Position numbers and translations under genes: made by a program. 42,292 nucleotides of DNA from a virus (taxonomy: Duplodnaviria; Heunggongvirae; Uroviricota; Caudoviricetes), in the IMG/VR virus record IMGVR_UViG_2651869755_000015, positions 1 through 42,292 of that record. One strand, 5' to 3'. Shown piece by piece: positions 4,148 through 35,720 of this stretch. Position 1 is the first letter of the stretch. The number at the start of each line of letters is the position of its first letter. The notes below the pieces were generated by a model, which saw nothing but the letters and a program-made list of their open reading frames with translations, was not told where the DNA came from and made no database searches.

Positions 4148-4965
4148 ACGTACATATCCTGTTTACGTGCCCAGTCAGGGCGTTTAATAATTTCCACTCC
4201 GCCCCATTCATCGTTGATGCGGCATTCGTGATAGGTATTCAGATCCCGGCGGAACAGAGCGTGCCCGGCATCGACATCTGGTGCATCCAGCTCGAACACG
4301 CGTACCGGATACCGACCACAATCAATGCTTTCGCTCACGGCAAGAAAGAAAAAACCATGCGGCTGACCAGTAACCCTCATTGCGCCTTCGCGGTACATTG
4401 CGTCCTGCACGTGGTAGCGGAATTCCTCGATGTGGCGTGCAAAACGGTCCATATCTGCAACCTTTTTCACGTCGACGATCACGTTGTGCTCGTTCAGCCA
4501 TTTGTCTGGACGAATTCGGCACAACTCACCCGTCTCTTCATCGTTCCAGTACATTGATGCTTCGCAGTAACCAGGTGCTTCCAGCATCCAGCGTGCCGCC
4601 GGATGAGCCATTGCGCTATCACGCATCAGCTCCAGTTTTCGCCACTGCTCGACATCAAGTACCGTAATACCCATATCCGCCACATCACGAAGAAATGCTT
4701 CTTCGTCAGCTTTACCTTGTTTTGTCCGACGATCGAACTTCGGTGAAACAATGAAGCGTTTGTCGAATTCTCCAGGCTCCAGAAGCAGACAGTGCAATGC
4801 GGTTCCCATATCCAGTGCAGACTTTTTCTCTTCGTCTTCTGGTGCTGCCTGAACCCATTTAAGAAGCGCCGGATTCTTGGCAACCATGTCCAGTTGCGAC
4901 TTACTCACGCCGTCACCGGCGTGGTAGTCTTCGTTGCTGATGTCGAAATAAATTCCCGGTTTCAT
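4144..4965 (-). CDS. RecE-family 5'-3' exonuclease (PD-(D/E)xK-type, exonuclease VIII-like short form)
   Basis: 273-aa protein immediately upstream of and translationally coupled to the annealing protein; resembles short phage RecE-like exonucleases. Confidence 0.65.
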   Translation of the reverse strand: MKPGIYFDISNEDYHAGDGVSKSQLDMVAKNPALLKWVQAAPEDEEKKSALDMGTALHCLLLEPGEFDKRFIVSPKFDRRTKQGKADEEAFLRDVADMGITVLDVEQWRKLELMRDSAMAHPAARWMLEAPGYCEASMYWNDEETGELCRIRPDKWLNEHNVIVDVKKVADMDRFARHIEEFRYHVQDAMYREGAMRVTGQPHGFFFLAVSESIDCGRYPVRVFELDAPDVDAGHALFRRDLNTYHECRINDEWGGVEIIKRPDWARKQDMYV

Positions 4966-5261
4966 GCCGCTTCCCTCTGCCCATCAATCCGATCCGCCAG
5001 ATCCCAGCGGGCGATAATTGCCATTGCCTCGCGCCGGTAGGAATCCATCAGTTCTTCGAACTCTGGACTGTCTTTAGCGGCCTCCAGTACTTCCTGGCGA
5101 ACGCCTTTAACTGTTACAACGTCGAAAGTTGATGCCAGTTGATGAAGCCGGATACTCTCAATCAGTTCAACTTGTCGGTCATATAGCTGTTCTGACAGGC
5201 GGTAGTCCTTGTCGAATGCCAGCATGATTTTTTGAAGATTTTTCTGCTGATTAACGTTCAT
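4962..5261 (-). CDS. Hypothetical early protein (99 aa)
   Basis: ATG at 5261 preceded by GGAGGG; ATGA overlap with exonuclease start. Confidence 0.45.
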   Translation of the reverse strand: MNVNQQKNLQKIMLAFDKDYRLSEQLYDRQVELIESIRLHQLASTFDVVTVKGVRQEVLEAAKDSPEFEELMDSYRREAMAIIARWDLADRIDGQREAA

Positions 5262-5263
5262 TA

Positions 5264-5416
5264 TCAGCCCTCCCATATCTCGTTATCGTTGGCCACATCG
5301 CGAGCTTCTTTGCTGACGAAAGCCCACTTAATGCCTTCCTGTAAGGTGCGGAACTTCCAGCTCATGAATCCGCATGCAGTAACGCAGTACCAACCGTTGA
5401 TGATTTTCCACTGCAT
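5264..5416 (-). CDS. Small protein (50 aa), weak resemblance to lambda CIII N-terminus
   Basis: Hand-translated ORF MQWKIINGWYCVTACGFMSWKFRTLQEGIKWAFVSKEARDVANDNEIWEG, not in the supplied track (<60 aa); GAGGT Shine-Dalgarno 8 nt upstream; first gene of the leftward early operon. Confidence 0.3.
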   Translation of the reverse strand: MQWKIINGWYCVTACGFMSWKFRTLQEGIKWAFVSKEARDVANDNEIWEG

Positions 5417-5497
5417 AACTTGTTACCTCGGTCTGTTATCGTTGAGGTAATAATTATGCGTATCTGGTTTGATGTCAATAGATATGAGTTAAAAAAA

Positions 5498-5512
5498 TTA
5501 CCCGTTAGGTAA
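5498..5512. promoter_or_regulatory. Operator-like palindrome TTACCCGTTAGGTAA (OL-equivalent)
   Basis: Perfect TTACC-N5-GGTAA dyad between the repressor gene end and the leftward early operon. Confidence 0.55.
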
Positions 5513-5523
5513 TCAAATAGGCA

Positions 5524-5548
5524 ATAAAAAAGCCGCCAGAAGGCGGCT
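5524..5548 (-). terminator. Rho-independent terminator downstream of repressor gene
   Basis: Stem AGCCGCC/GGCGGCT with AGAA loop, followed on the minus strand by a T-run. Confidence 0.6.
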
Positions 5549-5569
5549 TACTTACTGAAAAATATGATT

Positions 5570-6154
5570 TTATTGTTTGCTTTTTTCGTTCTGGTTGATG
5601 ACAAATTCAATGTAACTTTCGATCTTTGCCTTCTCTGTTTCAGGTAACAATGCGTAGCGCGAGCGGTCATAGTTGATAGTTGCAGGGTCATGCGGATGAA
5701 TCAGTAGTTCATATCCGTGACGCCCGAATGCAGATGCAACATTCTCCAGGGTGGAAATGGAAACGCTGACCTCATTGTTTAACAGGCGGCTGATTGTCAC
5801 CTGGGCGACGCCGGATGCGCGGTGAAGTTTTCCCTGAGTTGAAAGGTCGCGGCTTTCGCTCATCCAGCGTTCCAGGTTGTGAGCCGCCAGCTGACCAATG
5901 TCGCTTGGGCCGACAGGCTGAAAACCTTCCTGAGAAAGCGAGCGATCGATATCAAGCCAGTTACGGGGTTTATTGGCGGCAGCTTCAATTTTTCGCGCAA
6001 CCTGGTCGCCGATAACCTTCTTGCCAAGAGCCCAGCGGTTTACCAGATTTGCCTGAGTTCCAAGTTTTTCAGCCATCCGCGTCTGAACACCATTGAATTC
6101 ACGGTCGATCAAGTCGTTGAGATTTTGCCTGCGGACGTCCTGGATACTTTTCAT
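5570..6154 (-). CDS. Prophage repressor, tandem HTH (XRE-type), no obvious peptidase S24 domain
   Basis: 194 aa; two HTH-like segments (VQTRMAEKLGTQANLVNRW; VAQVTISRLLNNEVSVSISTLENVASAF); divergent from a Cro-like gene with three operators between them; no Ala-Gly/Ser-Lys autocleavage signature seen. Confidence 0.65.
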   Translation of the reverse strand: MKSIQDVRRQNLNDLIDREFNGVQTRMAEKLGTQANLVNRWALGKKVIGDQVARKIEAAANKPRNWLDIDRSLSQEGFQPVGPSDIGQLAAHNLERWMSESRDLSTQGKLHRASGVAQVTISRLLNNEVSVSISTLENVASAFGRHGYELLIHPHDPATINYDRSRYALLPETEKAKIESYIEFVINQNEKSKQ

Positions 6155-6209: not shown

Positions 6210-6272
6210 TTACCCAACAGGTAAATGCACCTCATGGGTAACTATCCTTGATTTTTGTTACCTTATAGGTGA
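6210..6272. promoter_or_regulatory. Divergent immunity promoter region with three operator-like dyads (OR-equivalent)
   Basis: TTACCCAACAGGTAA (6210-6224), partial CACCTCATGGGTAA (about 6229-6242), TTACCTTATAGGTGA (6258-6272) between the repressor and cro-like start codons. Confidence 0.6.
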
Positions 6273-6594: not shown

Positions 6595-6609
6595 GTACCT
6601 CAAAGGTAA
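6595..6609. promoter_or_regulatory. Operator-like dyad GTACCTCAAAGGTAA (one mismatch)
   Basis: Near-perfect copy of the TTACC-N5-GGTAA dyad upstream of the gene at 6690. Confidence 0.4.
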
Positions 6610-8540: not shown

Positions 8541-8617
8541 TTACCTTAGAGGTAATAAAATATTCTAAAATCTATTGATTTCGTGTCTTATGTGGTTTTT
8601 AATTACCTAAGGGGTAA
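8541..8617. promoter_or_regulatory. Two operator-like dyads upstream of the 8621 gene
   Basis: TTACCTTAGAGGTAA (8541-8555) and TTACCTAAGGGGTAA (8603-8617); CTTATGTGGTTTTT motif between them. Confidence 0.55.
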
Positions 8618-12470: not shown

Positions 12471-12503
12471 TTACCACAACGGTAACTATTACCACGGTGG
12501 TTA
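12471..12503. promoter_or_regulatory. Operator-like dyads immediately upstream of terS
   Basis: TTACCACAACGGTAA (12471-12485) and a degenerate copy TTACCACGGTGGTTA (12489-12503) within ACTATTACCAC direct repeats. Confidence 0.5.
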
Positions 12504-15202: not shown

Positions 15203-15279
15203 TGGCGTGGCATGCAGGATTCGAACCTGCGACCAACCGCTTAGAAGGCGGTTGCTCTGTCCAACTGAGCTAATGCCAC
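15203..15279 (-). tRNA. tRNA-Arg (anticodon UCU)
   Basis: Minus-strand 77-nt sequence GTGGCATTAGCTCAGTTGGACAGAGCAACCGCCTTCTAAGCGGTTGGTCGCAGGTTCGAATCCTGCATGCCACGCCA folds as a cloverleaf (7-bp acceptor stem, GTTCGAATC T-loop, anticodon loop CTTCTAA, 3' CCA). Confidence 0.85.
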
Positions 15280-15601: not shown

Positions 15602-15616
15602 TTACCTGAAAGGTAA
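15602..15616. promoter_or_regulatory. Operator-like dyad TTACCTGAAAGGTAA upstream of the structural operon
   Basis: Perfect dyad, identical to the site at 35706-35720; followed by CATATGTGGTTAAATTGGTAAT. Confidence 0.55.
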
Positions 15617-31447: not shown

Positions 31448-32008
31448 ATGAAGGCAATTATATTTTTTGTTTCAATATTGATGTCTGCATTTTCTTTTGC
31501 AGGGCAAAATGTTAAATGCGAACTTCAATACTTTGGAGATAGCGATAAATTTAAGGTAACTCAGTTTTCTTTTATGGGGATTCCATCTGATTCATACCTT
31601 TATACCTGTGCCGACTGTGGAGGCATCCAGATAAACGTGTTCCCATCTATTCAGACTGTTGCCTCCTACTCATTTGAAAACAACATTGATTTCGAAAGGA
31701 AAATCAATGCTGAATACAACAGAAAAGACATAGCTAAACTTGAGATGGAAAACGTTACTCAAGGCGGGAGAATAAAATATTCAATCACCGATACTGGTTT
31801 GGCAGAGTTTTACCCAGAGGGCAAAAAGATAAGCTACCTCTACTTTTTAGCCAAGCAACAAAATGGTAAAGAACAAGTAGGTTATTCAGGATTTGTTACC
31901 TCTAACGGGGATAAGTCATGCTCAATTATTGCGACATATCCAGGAAAAGAAATTTCTTTTCTGGGAAGTAAATCTTTAAGCTACTTTATGAATCATATAT
32001 CAATGTAG
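31448..32008 (+). CDS. AT-rich secreted protein (signal peptide), accessory
   Basis: N-terminal MKAIIFFVSILMSAFSFAGQ signal-peptide-like; visibly AT-rich codon usage; followed by palindrome copy 3. Confidence 0.55.
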   Translation: MKAIIFFVSILMSAFSFAGQNVKCELQYFGDSDKFKVTQFSFMGIPSDSYLYTCADCGGIQINVFPSIQTVASYSFENNIDFERKINAEYNRKDIAKLEMENVTQGGRIKYSITDTGLAEFYPEGKKISYLYFLAKQQNGKEQVGYSGFVTSNGDKSCSIIATYPGKEISFLGSKSLSYFMNHISM

Positions 32009-32022
32009 CGTGACATGTCACA
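32009..32022. repeat. 14-bp perfect palindrome CGTGACATGTCACA (copy 3, inverted orientation)
   Basis: Exact reverse complement of the 14-mer at 12194 and 14598. Confidence 0.85.
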
Positions 32023-32123
32023 GGCCGCTTTCGCGGTCTTGTTTTTAACGGATGCCACCGCCACCCGGGCGGGAATCCGCAGAACGCCCACCGCAGCGGG
32101 AGCCGTCAGCAGCAGTGTCGCTG

Positions 32124-32627
32124 TTATACTATTGAGTTAAATGATATCTTGTCCTTAATATCATTAAGTTTGCCATATATCTTTTTTGCATAAAAATCAG
32201 CTTCCTCAATAAACTTCGACTTCTCATTATCAGGCATATTTTTGAAGGTATGTGCACATGTATATTGAGAGTAGTAATTGTGAAACTTGTTATACATATT
32301 ATTGAGTTCTTGTAAGTCTTTTTTATACTCAGGAAGGTATATGTTTATTAGCATTTCCATCGTTTGCAACGGATTGACTTTTGATGTGTCAAATTTACTA
32401 TCAGAGTGGTAACTGGCATTGTTAACAAAATTGAGAATAGCCATTTTGTTTGAAGCTATGACTTTTTCAGTAAGTATGCAATTTGTGAATAATTGCTCAC
32501 GTTTATCTCTTAATATTTTTTCGCGCTCTAATTTTATGCTGTTTTTGTATCCTTGCCTTGCACTTATGTAAGTAGAAACTATAGCAATAACTGCACCTAT
32601 CAATGCGCCTAAGATAGTATTATCCAT
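32124..32627 (-). CDS. AT-rich membrane-anchored protein (1 predicted TM), accessory
   Basis: ATG at 32627 after AGGTGG; N-terminal hydrophobic helix ILGALIGAVIAIVSTYI; Lys/Asn/Tyr-rich soluble domain. Confidence 0.5.
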   Translation of the reverse strand: MDNTILGALIGAVIAIVSTYISARQGYKNSIKLEREKILRDKREQLFTNCILTEKVIASNKMAILNFVNNASYHSDSKFDTSKVNPLQTMEMLINIYLPEYKKDLQELNNMYNKFHNYYSQYTCAHTFKNMPDNEKSKFIEEADFYAKKIYGKLNDIKDKISFNSIV

Positions 32628-32652
32628 ATAAGCCACCTAAACTGCGTAAAAA

Positions 32653-33516
32653 TTATTTCCTGCCACTTCTGTAGTATATGTTGCGACCATTTTTGGTCAC
32701 ATTAACAACATGACCCTTTGTTTCTACTTTGTTATTGGTTGCCTTATATACTTCAAAGTCAAACCATGATATATGACTTATTTCGTCTATAGATACCATA
32801 ATTTCTAGACCTTGAACTTTCTTTTTGCTTATCCCTTTTATCGCAGCACTGCGCTTAATTTGGATTTCACCTGGGTAAGCGTTTGTAAATGTAACAGATA
32901 AATTTTCTTTGTTTCTGTACCCTGACATTAAAGGAACAAAAGATATGTGTTGGTGTGGCCCTTGATTTTCCGTTGGCTCACCAGAACCATTTATTATTCC
33001 AACGTATACTTTATTTGATGATAAAGTAATTAACATTGGTTTCTTAGGATCTGATTCGATTGCATCAAGCAATAGCAAATCTAAAGAACCCTGGGAGTAC
33101 GTTTTTCGCAATACTCTAGCTTTCATTGCCTCTGATATTTTGTCATAAATATCACGTTTATAAAAACAACCTAAAAGAAGATCTTTTAGCCAAACAAAAG
33201 ATACATAACACAAAGAGAAGCAAATTGATGTGACTGACAGAAGAAGTAGCCACATGTAAATTCTATCTGTTTCTGGTTTTGACGTTACATTAAAAGTTTC
33301 CACCATGTCGTGAACTAGGTGAAAATCAGGATATTTACATTTTATAAATGCGGCAATTATTACTGAAGCAACAAGGCAATATGTACCTAATGCAGCTACT
33401 TTCATATAAAGAAGCTGGCCTTCATGTCGGTATAAACGGAAATAATGATACTGGTTAGCGGTTATCATAATATAACCACTAACCAGAATGGGGATAATTA
33501 GAAGAGCTAACAACAC
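32653..33516 (-). CDS. AT-rich multi-pass membrane protein, accessory
   Basis: 287 aa; about 3 hydrophobic helices in the first ~110 residues then a soluble domain; GTG start overlapping the upstream stop (TAGTG). Confidence 0.55.
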   Translation of the reverse strand: MLLALLIIPILVSGYIMITANQYHYFRLYRHEGQLLYMKVAALGTYCLVASVIIAAFIKCKYPDFHLVHDMVETFNVTSKPETDRIYMWLLLLSVTSICFSLCYVSFVWLKDLLLGCFYKRDIYDKISEAMKARVLRKTYSQGSLDLLLLDAIESDPKKPMLITLSSNKVYVGIINGSGEPTENQGPHQHISFVPLMSGYRNKENLSVTFTNAYPGEIQIKRSAAIKGISKKKVQGLEIMVSIDEISHISWFDFEVYKATNNKVETKGHVVNVTKNGRNIYYRSGRK

Positions 33517-33725
33517 TATTTCCTTACAGTGGCAAGATCCTGTTTAACAATTGCAGCAGCGAGACGACGCATCTCTTTAACCTCAGGAAGCTCAGAAATT
33601 TGCTGTGATGAGATATATACTCCACCACGCTTGTTAACCTGCGCTGACGCCGGAACTTCTGCATTTTTTGCCTGAGGGCTGGGTGCATTATCCCTCGTTT
33701 TTGTACGAGCGAACCAAAATCCCAT
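33516..33725 (-). CDS. Hypothetical small protein (69 aa), first gene of the accessory operon
   Basis: Normal-GC ORF translationally coupled to the membrane protein; operator dyad upstream. Confidence 0.4.
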   Translation of the reverse strand: MGFWFARTKTRDNAPSPQAKNAEVPASAQVNKRGGVYISSQQISELPEVKEMRRLAAAIVKQDLATVRK

Positions 33726-33751
33726 ATCTCCTCCTCATGTAAACACATGGT

Positions 33752-33766
33752 TTACCTTTAGGGTAA
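33752..33766. promoter_or_regulatory. Operator-like dyad TTACCTTTAGGGTAA
   Basis: Perfect dyad in the 113-bp spacer upstream of the accessory operon; preceded by ACACATGGTT. Confidence 0.55.
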
Positions 33767-33838
33767 TAGTACGCTATTCACTCCCAGTCTGCAATCTGTA
33801 CAGAATTATTTAAAGGCACATCCCTGTGCCGCCGCCCG

Positions 33839-34573
33839 TCAGAAGAACCCTGCCTTGTCGTTGATGTACTCCGCGTGGGTCTGGATATCACGCAGGCATT
33901 TGCTCACACCGACGATGTAGCAGAACATGGTGGTCAGCTCCGCCGCCGCGCCCGATACGTCGTGCCCGTCTTCCTGTAACTGGTTCAGCAGATTCATCAG
34001 CAGTGAGTTCTCCGTCAGGCCGAGAACACCAGACGGCGAATGAATCAGGCTGCGGTAGCCGGGCTTCAGTGGGGCACTGTATTCTTTTTTGTCTTCCAGC
34101 TTGATCGCCTCCATAATGGCGGGCATGAATTTTTCAATTACCTGAGTGGCCTTTGATAAATCAGCTCCACCTGAGAGACGAACATCTCCACTGACATTTG
34201 CGGGTTTTCTGTCGAAGTAGCAATCTTCCAGTTTTTCGAAGACCTCCCACGCTTTTTCAGTCTCAAGAATTTTCGCATGTCGTGCTGCACCGCGAGCGGT
34301 CCATAAGAAAAGATGACTTACTTTTGGTGCAATATTAAGCAAACCTCTTTGAGAGGACTCGTTCTTAAATGCTCGTAATTCTTCGCCTATCAGCTTGAAA
34401 CAATGTTTTCCCTCAATGAATCGATCTGCATTTCGTTGATAGTTTTGACGAATCAGTTTGGGTTCTGTGTCATACAAATCAGCAAGCATTTCTGTAGTCA
34501 TTACAGGGATGTTGCAATGAGTTGTTATCGGCAACTTATCAATAGCTATATTACGCATTTTCATTGCCTCCAT
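33839..34573 (-). CDS. Antirepressor-like protein (ORF6N/Ant N-terminal domain plus C-terminal domain)
   Basis: N-terminal VMTTEMLADLYDTEPKLIRQNYQRNADRFIEGKHCFKL matches the ORF6N/Ant pattern; C-terminal ~70 aa homologous to the 35372-35629 product. Start may be 34558 or 34564. Confidence 0.65.
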   Translation of the reverse strand: MEAMKMRNIAIDKLPITTHCNIPVMTTEMLADLYDTEPKLIRQNYQRNADRFIEGKHCFKLIGEELRAFKNESSQRGLLNIAPKVSHLFLWTARGAARHAKILETEKAWEVFEKLEDCYFDRKPANVSGDVRLSGGADLSKATQVIEKFMPAIMEAIKLEDKKEYSAPLKPGYRSLIHSPSGVLGLTENSLLMNLLNQLQEDGHDVSGAAAELTTMFCYIVGVSKCLRDIQTHAEYINDKAGFF

Positions 34574-35057
34574 CTTTCACGACGAAATAGCAATTATCTT
34601 TATAATCTAACTGGATGAACTTTATGTTTTCAGGGAGTTTTACAGAAAGAGTTTTTGCACAAGCAAAACCAAAATCTGCGCCAGAAGCATCCATATACCT
34701 TAATAATTGTTTTAATGCTGAAGGAGAAAAAGTATCTACCTTCACCTCAACAGGGTAACCATCTTTTGTTTTTAGGTCTGGTTGACCTGGTCCACCAAGT
34801 ATTTCAGCGTTAAGGTATTTTGCTATTTCTGGATAAGCGTTGTATTCAGAGCGTAGTTTTGCCTTGTTATCGACTGCTAGTTGCATAAGATGATCAAACA
34901 AATTGGTATCTAAATCTGCCCCTTCATCCCACATTCTATTTCTACAGCTAATCAATTCACTGACCAGTGGTGCACTTTCTTGCCTTAGCATAAGAAGGAG
35001 TGGAGAATTAGAAATTAACCAATACAGATCGTCGTTTGAGATTTTTTGGCCTGGCAT
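34551..35057 (-). CDS. Hypothetical protein (168 aa) co-transcribed with antirepressor
   Basis: ORF with stop overlapping the ant start region. Confidence 0.45.
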   Translation of the reverse strand: MPGQKISNDDLYWLISNSPLLLMLRQESAPLVSELISCRNRMWDEGADLDTNLFDHLMQLAVDNKAKLRSEYNAYPEIAKYLNAEILGGPGQPDLKTKDGYPVEVKVDTFSPSALKQLLRYMDASGADFGFACAKTLSVKLPENIKFIQLDYKDNCYFVVKDGGNENA

Positions 35058-35211
35058 AGCGATACCTCTACTAGTAAGTTACCCACCACCGCAACGCCAA
35101 TTGCTGGTGGTGAACTGGACAAGGTTGGCGTACCGGCCTAGTAGGTACCGGCGCACCTTTCGGTGCCCCTGCCCAGCCCACCATAATTCGGATATGACTG
35201 TGCTATACGCA

Positions 35212-35235
35212 TAAAAAAACCACGTCTGGCGTGGT
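35212..35235 (-). terminator. Rho-independent terminator downstream of small antirepressor gene
   Basis: Minus strand ACCACGCCAGACGTGGT followed by TTTTTTT. Confidence 0.55.
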
Positions 35236-35325
35236 ATGCGCCTACTAGTAATCCGGGACGCCAATCCCGGCACTGGATTTTGCCAGTGCCTGATTACTAT
35301 GGCACAAGAGGAGTGCGATGTAAAT

Positions 35326-35340
35326 TTACCGCAAAGGTAA
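35326..35340. promoter_or_regulatory. Operator-like dyad TTACCGCAAAGGTAA
   Basis: Perfect dyad in the structured noncoding spacer 35058-35371. Confidence 0.5.
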
Positions 35341-35371: not shown

Positions 35372-35629
35372 TTATCTGGTTTGCTTTCGTAATTGTTCGG
35401 CACAATAGTCGAGATGTGTTTGCAGATCCTGCATAGACATCTGTGAGCTGGTGACGTAGTTAATCAGTGCAGTCAGTTCGGCAAGTGGGCCATCGACATT
35501 AAATCCATCCTTATCGAGATCCCGGAGTAATTTCATCAAGTGCGATCCCTCCACCAGTGACCTGACGCCTCCCGGCGTGTGAATCCTTTCGGTAAATCCG
35601 TCTTCCAGTGGATAGTGATACTGCTGCAT
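35372..35629 (-). CDS. Small antirepressor-like protein (homolog of Ant C-terminal domain)
   Basis: ATG at 35629 after GGAGAAG (track uses TTG at 35647); IHTPGGVRSLVEGSHLMKLLRDLDKDGFNVDGPLAELTALINYV aligns with IHSPSGVLGLTENSLLMNLLNQLQEDGHDVSGAAAELTTMFCYI of the 244-aa Ant; LexA box 22 bp upstream. Confidence 0.5.
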   Translation of the reverse strand: MQQYHYPLEDGFTERIHTPGGVRSLVEGSHLMKLLRDLDKDGFNVDGPLAELTALINYVTSSQMSMQDLQTHLDYCAEQLRKQTR

Positions 35630-35650
35630 CTTATCTTCTCCATGCAATAA

Positions 35651-35705: not shown

Positions 35706-35720
35706 TTACCTGAAAGGTAA
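35706..35720. promoter_or_regulatory. Operator-like dyad TTACCTGAAAGGTAA upstream of tailspike
   Basis: Identical to 15602-15616; followed by CCATATGTGGTTTTTCAGGTAAT. Confidence 0.55.

Follow-up and report, generated by a model that had tools for sequence, protein, structure and literature searches.

Effectors that combine transmembrane (TM) helices with a small beta-barrel, such as Cap15 of the cyclic-oligonucleotide-based antiphage signalling system (CBASS), kill through membrane disruption, and RexAB of phage lambda is modelled to depolarise the membrane upon sensing a competing phage. Proteins of the Sm/Hfq type build hexameric or heptameric rings and bind nucleic acid, the Sm-like WYL domains of BrxR, CapW and DriD are ligand sensors, and the MscS subunit unites three TM helices with a cytoplasmic Sm-like beta domain in a heptameric ring. 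In type II toxin–antitoxin (TA) modules, a small gene lies upstream of a larger toxic gene and overlaps it. Here we compare with these systems a pair of genes in IMG/VR virus record IMGVR_UViG_2651869755_000015 (positions 1 to 42,292; this whole stretch of 42,292 nucleotides (nt) is called the window below). The pair encodes a soluble basic protein of 69 amino acids (aa) without a TM segment (33516–33725, minus strand) and a 287-aa inner-membrane protein, the proposed effector (32653–33516, minus strand). A gene for a 167-aa single-TM protein (32124–32627, minus strand) is the third gene of the same operon, and a gene for a 186-aa exported (periplasmic) protein (31448–32008, plus strand) forms the 3′ end of the late operon. 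These four open reading frames (ORFs), as named in an initial annotation of the window, are all present in the ORF list.

The closest described relative of the pair was found in a catalogue of the P2-like prophage hotspot. Rousset et al. 2022 (PMC9122126, Table S5B) list 169 gene arrangements in this hotspot, and their entry #57, with 75 occurrences and no Pfam annotation, combines a protein that starts with MFALLIIPLLVSGY and a 78-aa protein that includes VVGRGAII...KARKIV. BLASTP aligned the large protein of #57 with residues 2–264 of the 287-aa protein at 36% identity (E = 3e-55), and the motifs LLIPxLVSGY, KxYVG, SGYR and SWFD are shared; the likeness extends to the 78-aa partner with its VVGRG...KARKIV. 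A direct pairwise BLAST of the 69-aa protein against protein 2 of #57 was negative. Compared with a profile of the other partners, in which protein 2 of #57 was included and from which the window's own subgroup was left out, the 69-aa protein scored 21.8 bits (E = 9e-6), with 10.5 bits as the best of 1,400 shuffles. Judged by these sequence comparisons, the window pair belongs to the same two-gene family as system #57. The two differ in their setting: #57 occupies the P2 hotspot, whereas the window module lies in a slot of a Uetakevirus, behind a phage operator and with an extra third gene (167 aa).

To describe the family, loci were gathered by tblastn, protein searches and a one-genome-per-species scan, the last of which added loci from gamma-, beta- and alpha-proteobacteria and from a Turneriella metagenome-assembled genome. 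An exhaustive HMMER search placed 2,782 clusters at 50% identity in the 287-aa family (E<=1e-3), nearly all of 240–310 aa and matching from end to end. The 69-aa protein has the core motif [RK]V.G[RK]G.[VI].[IV]...E[IV].....E[VF]K..R..A..IV, and a small ORF bearing this motif was found immediately upstream of the three-TM gene in 17 of 21 loci (gamma-, beta- and alpha-proteobacteria, Turneriella). The other four comprise two P2-type loci whose small ORF was unmatched, a pseudogene and a locus truncated by the end of its record; a small ORF adjoins the three-TM gene wherever the locus is complete enough for a judgement. The small proteins of the two most divergent P2-type loci were not detected by the partner profile. 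Across contexts the upstream ORF measures 57–90 aa; it overlaps the large gene by as much as 1 nt or is separated from it by up to about 21 nt, with a promoter upstream in each case; in the window the stop of the 69-aa gene and the start of the 287-aa gene share 1 nt.

At least four phage types and free-standing islands host the module, which sits where cargo or defence genes sit, namely at int/attP edges, at the lambdoid right end and in the P2 gpA-to-portal hotspot. It adjoins int/attP in Cronobacter phage phiES15, abuts the integrase in Citrobacter and Pectobacterium lambdoid prophages, lies at the right end of another lambdoid prophage, and occupies the gpA-to-portal hotspot of Klebsiella and Salmonella P2-like phages, in one case beside a SEFIR protein. 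In a Providencia epsilon15-like prophage it takes the same place as in the window, and in Pseudomonas phages the record stops at the gene, with the upstream ORF outside view. The pair is a conserved, mobile and dispensable two-gene unit at the cargo or defence loci of many prophages. The initial annotation had proposed a superinfection-exclusion or abortive-infection function for the region; because the same family is catalogued in the P2 anti-phage hotspot and occurs at prophage edges, this proposal is credible for the core pair. Klebsiella phage ST15-OXA48phi14.1 carries a 69-aa ORF and a SEFIR-domain protein directly after the module in its P2-type hotspot (4356–5995 of that locus), possibly a neighbouring defence gene or an extended system.

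Searches of the four window proteins against Pfam, NCBIfam and PADLOC gave zero family matches, which agrees with the initial annotation, where no recognisable motif had been noted, and all four fall in PHROG families of "unknown function". When 101 diverse members of the 287-aa family were searched against Pfam and PADLOC, no consistent match was obtained, the two PADLOC matches being isolated and insignificant. The arrangement of the pair is that of a type II TA module, with the small gene first, the 1-nt overlap and one operon with its own promoter. The likeness did not extend to the antitoxin: none of the 17 partners matched a ribbon-helix-helix, AbrB, helix-turn-helix (HTH) or Phd/YefM fold in Pfam or PDB, and the operator on the promoter, through which an antitoxin would autoregulate, is the phage's. 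An AbrB/MazE-type antitoxin had been considered for the GRG-V-I-P/D-x-E motif of the partner and was dropped, as profile searches of the 17 partner sequences against Pfam and PDB returned no match.

The Kyte–Doolittle profile of the 287-aa protein has TM segments at residues 1–19, 40–58 and 90–108; together with the signal peptide of the 186-aa protein and the single TM segment of the 167-aa protein, it agrees with the topology assigned initially (about three TM segments for the 287-aa protein). An AlphaFold2 model built on a 22-sequence alignment reached medium confidence (predicted local distance difference test (pLDDT) 70.6, predicted template modelling (pTM) score 0.54) and begins with three long helices, which two linker helices connect to a beta domain at residues 160–251. 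Foldseek of the model against PDB returned Sm/LSm chains only, while the matches of a BFVD fold search were uncharacterised or of low template modelling score only. The C-terminal domain (about residues 144–255) is predicted from this model to be an Sm/LSm/Hfq-like beta-barrel, in which an N-terminal helix is followed by five strongly bent antiparallel strands in a small barrel. Neither the window protein nor the 101 family members matched the Sm1/Sm2 motifs or Pfam LSM/Hfq, and no PDB sequence match was found. The net charge over the 101 members, +2.3 for loop 1, -1.0 for loop 2 and +2.8 for the stretch behind TM3, predicts by the positive-inside rule an N-terminus that lies outside and an Sm-like domain that faces the cytoplasm. 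Conservation peaks in TM1 together with cytoplasmic loop 1, as well as in the core of the barrel (K169, Y171, G173, P195, S198, G199, R201, Y214 and F252).

The comparison with Sm/LSm/Hfq proteins and WYL sensors has its differences: the 287-aa protein lacks Sm1/Sm2 and WYL motifs and any Pfam LSM or WYL match, and its domain is fused to three TM helices. We know of no described Sm/Hfq or WYL protein with three fused TM helices, and full-text searches were likewise blank. The literature, searched in full text, held nothing relevant on Sm-like/LSm membrane defence proteins, on the RefSeq accessions of these proteins or on Uetakevirus morons. MscS offers a precedent for a TM bundle gated by an Sm-like ring, as an architectural analogy only; the 287-aa protein has two extra helices between TM3 and the barrel, and the MS_channel profile of Pfam matched neither it nor the family members. 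Cap15, Cam1, Csx23 and PycTM share with it an N-terminal TM anchor and a small C-terminal barrel or ligand domain on the cytoplasmic face, and the proposed logic, in which oligomerisation driven by a ligand or partner would perturb the inner membrane, is alike as well. Unlike these effectors, the window pair has no adjacent cyclase or other signal-producing enzyme and only a protein of 60–90 aa as partner; no sequence or PADLOC match links the two, and the Cap15 barrel is eight-stranded whereas that of the 287-aa protein is Sm-like, with five strands and an N-terminal helix. RexAB of lambda and gp30/31 of mycobacteriophage Sbash are likewise prophage-borne pairs of a cytoplasmic and a polytopic membrane protein carried as dispensable cargo. 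They differ from the window pair in that no homology was detected (zero matches to the PADLOC Rex models), RexA is far larger than the 69-aa partner, and the likely sensor, the Sm-like domain of the model, would lie within the membrane protein itself.

Given the ring formation and ligand binding of Sm proteins, the sensing by WYL domains, the membrane disruption by Cap15 and the pore of MscS, we favour a membrane effector under the control of its Sm-like domain and the small partner. The 69-aa protein would be translationally coupled to the 287-aa inner-membrane protein, whose three TM helices would hold the Sm/LSm-like barrel at the membrane on the cytoplasmic side. The Sm-like domains would oligomerise or bind a ligand, which may be nucleic acid or the small partner, and this event would switch the TM bundle from a harmless state to membrane perturbation or a block of DNA entry. 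The small partner would restrain or trigger the 287-aa protein, and a competing phage would thereby be excluded or its infection aborted. We tentatively propose, at somewhat less than an even chance, that the pair is such a TA-like membrane effector, or a sensor–effector module, in inter-phage conflict.

Several results weigh on the other side of this proposal. PADLOC-DB 2.0.0 matches none of the four window proteins and gave no significant match to family members, and the sequence of #57 was sought in the tables of cloned and tested systems of Rousset et al. (PMC9122126, including Table S2) and was absent. The fold comes from the AlphaFold2 model of medium confidence, with neither an Sm motif nor a Pfam LSM match beside it; searches of Pfam and PDB linked the small partner to no known fold of antitoxins or DNA-binding proteins; and several distant homologs lie among ordinary housekeeping genes. 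Finally, the operator on the promoter suggests an operon that is off in the stable lysogen, a poor fit to a defence gene expressed by the lysogen. If a function in exclusion or abortive infection is true, a large unannotated family with no Pfam, PADLOC or NCBIfam model would join the phage-conflict systems, one of the many P2-hotspot arrangements would be given a function, and the Sm/Hfq-like fold would appear as the cytoplasmic module of a membrane effector, a role that to our knowledge has not been described. A more specific version, rather improbable in our estimate, is that a ring of Sm/Hfq-like domains under 18–21 TM helices acts as a pore gated by nucleic acid or a partner, an MscS-like channel for death or exclusion made from the fold of an RNA chaperone, with the small protein as its latch, and represents a new class of conflict system. 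In that case the family of about 2,800 clusters across Proteobacteria and phages would be a widespread, unnamed immune or exclusion module.

The prophage that carries the pair had been compared with P22-like phages, but it is not P22-like: its packaging and head genes are 97–98% identical to those of phiV10, TL-2011b, phiv142-3 and other Uetakeviruses, and by these identities it is a phiV10/epsilon15-like prophage (Uetakevirus). When the region of interest was aligned with phiV10-like phages, matches were restricted to the flanks, with a single central match at 32009–32130 in isolated phages. On the minus strand the variable slot is bounded by the Bro-N/Ant antirepressor gene and the terminator of the late operon, a hairpin AGGCCGC-TTTC-GCGGTCT followed by TGTTTTT that was called by the terminator scan at 32022–32039 (plus strand). 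This terminator sits in a backbone stretch kept in all relatives, and phiV10 has a terminator annotated at the homologous place. The slot is empty in phiV10, holds a small protein and a YafO-toxin pair in TL-2011b and the 69-aa and 287-aa genes here, and in relatives that bear the 186-aa gene it is filled in Salmonella by a DUF2335 pair and in Hafnia by a YafO-like gene. In these relatives the contents read as a 59-aa protein with a YafO-family toxin (TL-2011b, locus L045, 3796–4495), a 110-aa protein with a DUF2335 membrane protein (Salmonella, L015, 5617–6421), and toxin-like cargo of the YafO type behind an operator-bearing promoter (Hafnia, L019, 5614–6159). Taken by its gene content, the slot acts like a regulated site at which TA-like modules are exchanged. 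The view that the genes are horizontally acquired cargo was supported; they occupy variable slots of the prophage. Two swap-in cargo slots are hereby defined in phiV10-like prophages, one of which is wired to the phage's own dispersed operator.

The YafO-toxin pairs in the slot of TL-2011b and Hafnia also bear on a different explanation, a selfish addiction module in which a membrane toxin and a labile small antitoxin stabilise the mobile element without a direct anti-phage role. Such a module would suit the TA-like layout (small gene first, overlap or at most 21 nt, own promoter) and the solitary two-gene islands that stand among housekeeping genes in several genomes or beside Fic/TraX or integrase genes. 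We hold it to be doubtful: no domain of an antitoxin or DNA-binding type is recognisable in the small protein, the operator is the phage's and not the module's, and nothing points to autoregulation by an antitoxin. Since many TA modules found in such places take part in phage defence, the addiction reading overlaps with the conflict effector that we prefer.

The initial annotation had also placed an operator-bearing promoter ahead of the membrane-protein operon, and such a promoter was recognised. It is of the sigma-70 type (33794–33766, minus strand), with a -35 element TTGCAG (33794–33789), a 17-nt spacer and a -10 element TACTAT (33771–33766), and it was read by eye, having been missed by the consensus scan with three of six bases matching at -35. 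A perfect palindrome, TTACC-N5-GGTAA (33752–33766), abuts it, its first base being the last base of the -10 hexamer; the same arrangement of TACTAT and operator recurs identically at 12471. Within the window TTACC-N5-GGTAA occurs at 15 sites with at most one mismatch (nine exact), against 0.71 expected, and none of 100 shuffles reached 15. The sites lie at 5436–5450, 5498–5512, 6210–6224, 6258–6272, 6595–6609, 8541–8555, 8603–8617, 12471–12485, 12489–12503, 15602–15616, 33752–33766, 35326–35340 and 35706–35720, and two operator-like sites inside genes (31810 and 39331) have one mismatch each. Pairs of sites stand on both sides of a gene for a 194-aa putative repressor with two HTH domains (5570–6154, minus strand), a homolog of phiV10p40, and further sites precede other early-type genes, the operon of a 168-aa gene and ant, and a 91-aa gene; most are abutted by a -10-like hexamer. 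The same promoter–operator unit stands ahead of any slot cargo in TL-2011b and in prophages of Salmonella and Hafnia; unrelated phages do not have it ahead of their homologous modules.

The dispersed sites look like a network in the style of P1 C1 or of "stoperators" that would place the antirepressor operon and the cargo slot under common control with the early genes. The C1 repressor of P1 acts at many dispersed operators, immI included. An operator that overlaps both the transcription start and the -10 hexamer predicts that a phage regulator represses the promoter, and negative control of the slot promoter by the phage repressor or Cro would be the simplest reading. The operon would then probably be off or low in the stable lysogen and on after infection or induction, along with the early and antirepressor genes. 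The operator-bearing promoter had been considered initially to be consistent with expression in the lysogen; the finding that the operator is a phage-wide palindrome bracketing a putative repressor gene argues for repression instead. Expression timing, in the lysogen or early in lytic growth, is thus a concrete question for the slot cargo of phiV10-like prophages.

An operator common to the early promoters and the antirepressor operon could also mean that the genes, co-regulated with early genes, serve the phage's own lytic programme or the physiology of its host, for instance in membrane remodelling, lysis timing, as a tethered RNA chaperone or in counter-defence. Sm/Hfq-like folds are classically RNA-binding and phage accessory genes are often counter-defence genes, which would fit such a role. 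It nevertheless seems to us a fairly remote prospect: the genes are dispensable, with the slot empty in phiV10 and filled by other cargo in relatives that share 97–98% identical structural genes, the self-contained pair, promoter included, moves among loci outside phages as well as among unrelated phages, and the lysis genes of these phages lie elsewhere.

Between the operator and the Shine–Dalgarno sequence lies a second perfect palindrome, GTAAAC-N5-GTTTAC (33739–33755), which overlaps the inner half of the operator and has a single exact copy in the window. It had been considered as a structured RNA hairpin in the 5′ untranslated region (UTR), and this was given up, as its folding energy was like that of shuffled sequences (z = -0.33). 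Modules at four other loci (L005, L023, L024 and L025) have short inverted repeats of their own at about -40 to -20 from the start of the small gene, for example CTCAAA-N7-TTTGAG and CCTTAA...TTAAGG, located between the -10 hexamer and the Shine–Dalgarno sequence. The position of the repeat ahead of the module is conserved and its sequence is not; these repeats might serve the small protein as its operator or form a 5′-UTR hairpin. Upstream of the promoter, between the antirepressor gene and the cassette, a weak terminator-like hairpin GGCACA-GGGA-TGTGCC is followed by TTTAAATAATT (33815–33830, minus strand); the terminator scan did not call it, so read-through from the ant operon is possible.

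The place of the cassette had been equated with the sieA locus of P22-like phages. SieA and the membrane proteins of the cassette are small inner-membrane proteins from AT-rich, dispensable genes, without recognisable domains, and both are placed between the last internal or ejection-protein gene and the antirepressor/tailspike region. The equivalence is a positional analogy only: P22 SieA (from NC_002371) showed no similarity to the 167-aa protein in BLASTP (E = 0.97) or to the profile of the 287-aa family in hhalign (probability 0.4%). The conserved cytoplasmic motif of SieA is FxRYPxEAxxFNK (Leavitt et al. 2024, PMC10883804), and it was not present in the sequence of either membrane protein. 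SieA is moreover a single gene restricted to P22-like prophages, in contrast to the two-gene module seen here across many phage types.

Superinfection exclusion in the manner of SieA, T4 Imm or HK97 gp15, in which the 287-aa protein with the 69-aa and perhaps the 167-aa protein would block genome delivery without killing, can still be asked of the pair. The early-type, operator-controlled promoter would then shield a freshly infected or induced cell from co-infection, and early expression of this kind is that of T4 imm and sp. The predicted inner-membrane location is compatible with this, as is the cargo slot beside the internal or ejection-protein genes, near which phiV10 has another superinfection function (Oac); SieA proteins, too, have no recognisable domain (PMC10883804). 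We nonetheless consider such a block unlikely. Besides the missing sequence and profile similarity to SieA and the missing motif, the module occurs in podo-, myo- and siphovirus-like prophages and in bacteria with no obvious prophage, which is hard to fit to a block of one injection machinery, and a conserved cytoplasmic Sm-like domain with an obligatory soluble partner is foreign to known injection blockers. The conflict effector with an Sm-like domain is preferred here as well.

With respect to base composition, the three genes that had been described as AT-rich stand out against the structural flank (GC content 0.31–0.36 versus 0.55 per gene). The values are 0.357 for the 186-aa gene, 0.345 for the 287-aa gene and 0.308 for the 167-aa gene; the 850-aa structural gene upstream has 0.552, the window as a whole 0.490 and the 69-aa gene 0.467. 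The sliding profile falls to 0.30–0.38 over 31500–33450, and the neighbouring 168-aa gene (34551–35057) is likewise AT-rich (0.377), which shows that the low-GC zone extends beyond 31448–33725, the limits given at first.

These genes had been taken for a single cassette, and in this respect the initial annotation was revised. The 186-aa gene, the pair of 69-aa and 287-aa genes, and the 167-aa gene sort separately among related prophages; related E. coli prophages carry every combination of them, and by this distribution the region is made up of three independently assorting units. All parts stand together in 1 of 5,426 complete E. coli genomes. One three-component system of a secreted protein and two membrane proteins, which adjacency, the common low GC and the direction of all products to the envelope might suggest, is therefore very improbable. 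The 186-aa gene is convergent with the operon and a member of the late operon, and it occurs with the DUF2335 pair in Salmonella or the YafO-like gene in Hafnia in place of the 69-aa and 287-aa genes, just as the 69-aa and 287-aa genes, with or without the 167-aa gene, occur with genes of 98, 137 or 149 aa in place of the 186-aa gene.

The 167-aa ORF starts at an ATG behind an AGGTGG Shine–Dalgarno sequence, the alternative in the ORF list being a GTG at 32636. Hydropathy (Kyte–Doolittle) placed a TM segment at residues 5–23 with positive charges after it, and the protein is predicted to consist of an N-terminal TM helix and a helical cytoplasmic part. It belongs to PHROG 36918 (unknown function) and matched nothing in PDB, Pfam or PADLOC, nor by tblastn in phage records. 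Its homologs form 12 clusters only, all from E. coli or unnamed sources, and in relatives the gene is always directly downstream of the 69-aa and 287-aa genes. The gap between the 287-aa and 167-aa genes has no terminator here, whereas relatives lacking the 167-aa gene have a strong one directly after the 287-aa homolog, which indicates that the basic module consists of two genes. The 167-aa protein is probably a lineage-specific (E. coli) accessory of the operon. Behind it, DNA alignment revealed the 3′ remnant of a 53-aa signal-peptide gene (32043–32123, minus strand; GC 0.65), which is intact in two aligned prophages, where it encodes what relatives have annotated as a "transmembrane anchored protein"; the remnant itself is annotated as a pseudogene in relatives. 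The 167-aa gene took the place of the 5′ half of the 53-aa gene, and the junction lies exactly at the 167-aa stop codon.

The 186-aa protein has one N-terminal hydrophobic segment in the Kyte–Doolittle profile, like a signal peptide (...SFA/GQ), and four cysteines that are invariant across 14 homologs. Its gene always starts 2 nt past the structural gene of 848–850 aa in Salmonella, Hafnia and E. coli prophages, whatever genes occupy the opposite strand, and in other relatives its place is taken by nothing or by genes of 46, 98, 137 or 149 aa. The protein falls in PHROG 11983 (unknown function), tblastn against all phage records gave zero matches, and its AlphaFold2 model (pLDDT 44) was unusable for a fold search. 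This periplasmic protein is unrelated cargo expressed with the late operon and is not part of the minus-strand operon. A comparison with Llp of phage T5, which is also exported and made during lytic growth, aligned the first approximately 20 mature residues with Llp chain 8a60_B (xxKCExxYxxDxxK[FY]Kxx F). The match is weak (17 bits, E = 0.04) and spans the signal peptide; the 186-aa protein lacks a lipobox cysteine and is three times as long as Llp. Considering this weak match and the zero phage matches in tblastn, an Llp-like identity was set aside as a weak lead only, not a relationship. A perfect 12-bp palindrome, GTGACATGTCAC (32009–32020), lies between the 186-aa stop codon and the late terminator and is kept in the aligned relatives.

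Beyond the cassette, Rfam identified a C4 antisense RNA (35103–35188, minus strand; 76.7 bits) and an isrK-like RNA (35213–35289, minus strand; 68.1 bits), which lie between the operator at 35326 and the 168-aa and ant genes. The antirepressor control region is of the P1/P7 immI type (c4-icd-ant) and not of the P22 mnt/arc/sar type. The 168-aa gene (34551–35057, minus strand; PHROG 18738, unknown function) has an icd-like position and shares 23 nt with the start of the ORF6N/Bro-type antirepressor gene. Its product matched nothing in Pfam, PADLOC or PDB and has a D...EVK stretch that, as a sequence resemblance, may recall PD-(D/E)xK nucleases. The 91-aa protein (35372–35647, minus strand; PHROG 450) resembles the C-terminal third of the 244-aa antirepressor (33839–34573, minus strand), with which it has common PHROG 450/15539/1760 matches; these similarities suggest that the C-domain of the antirepressor has been duplicated or split. 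A tRNA gene is present among the packaging and head genes at 15206–15279 (minus strand; Rfam, 73.3 bits), where relatives have a tRNA-Arg annotated.

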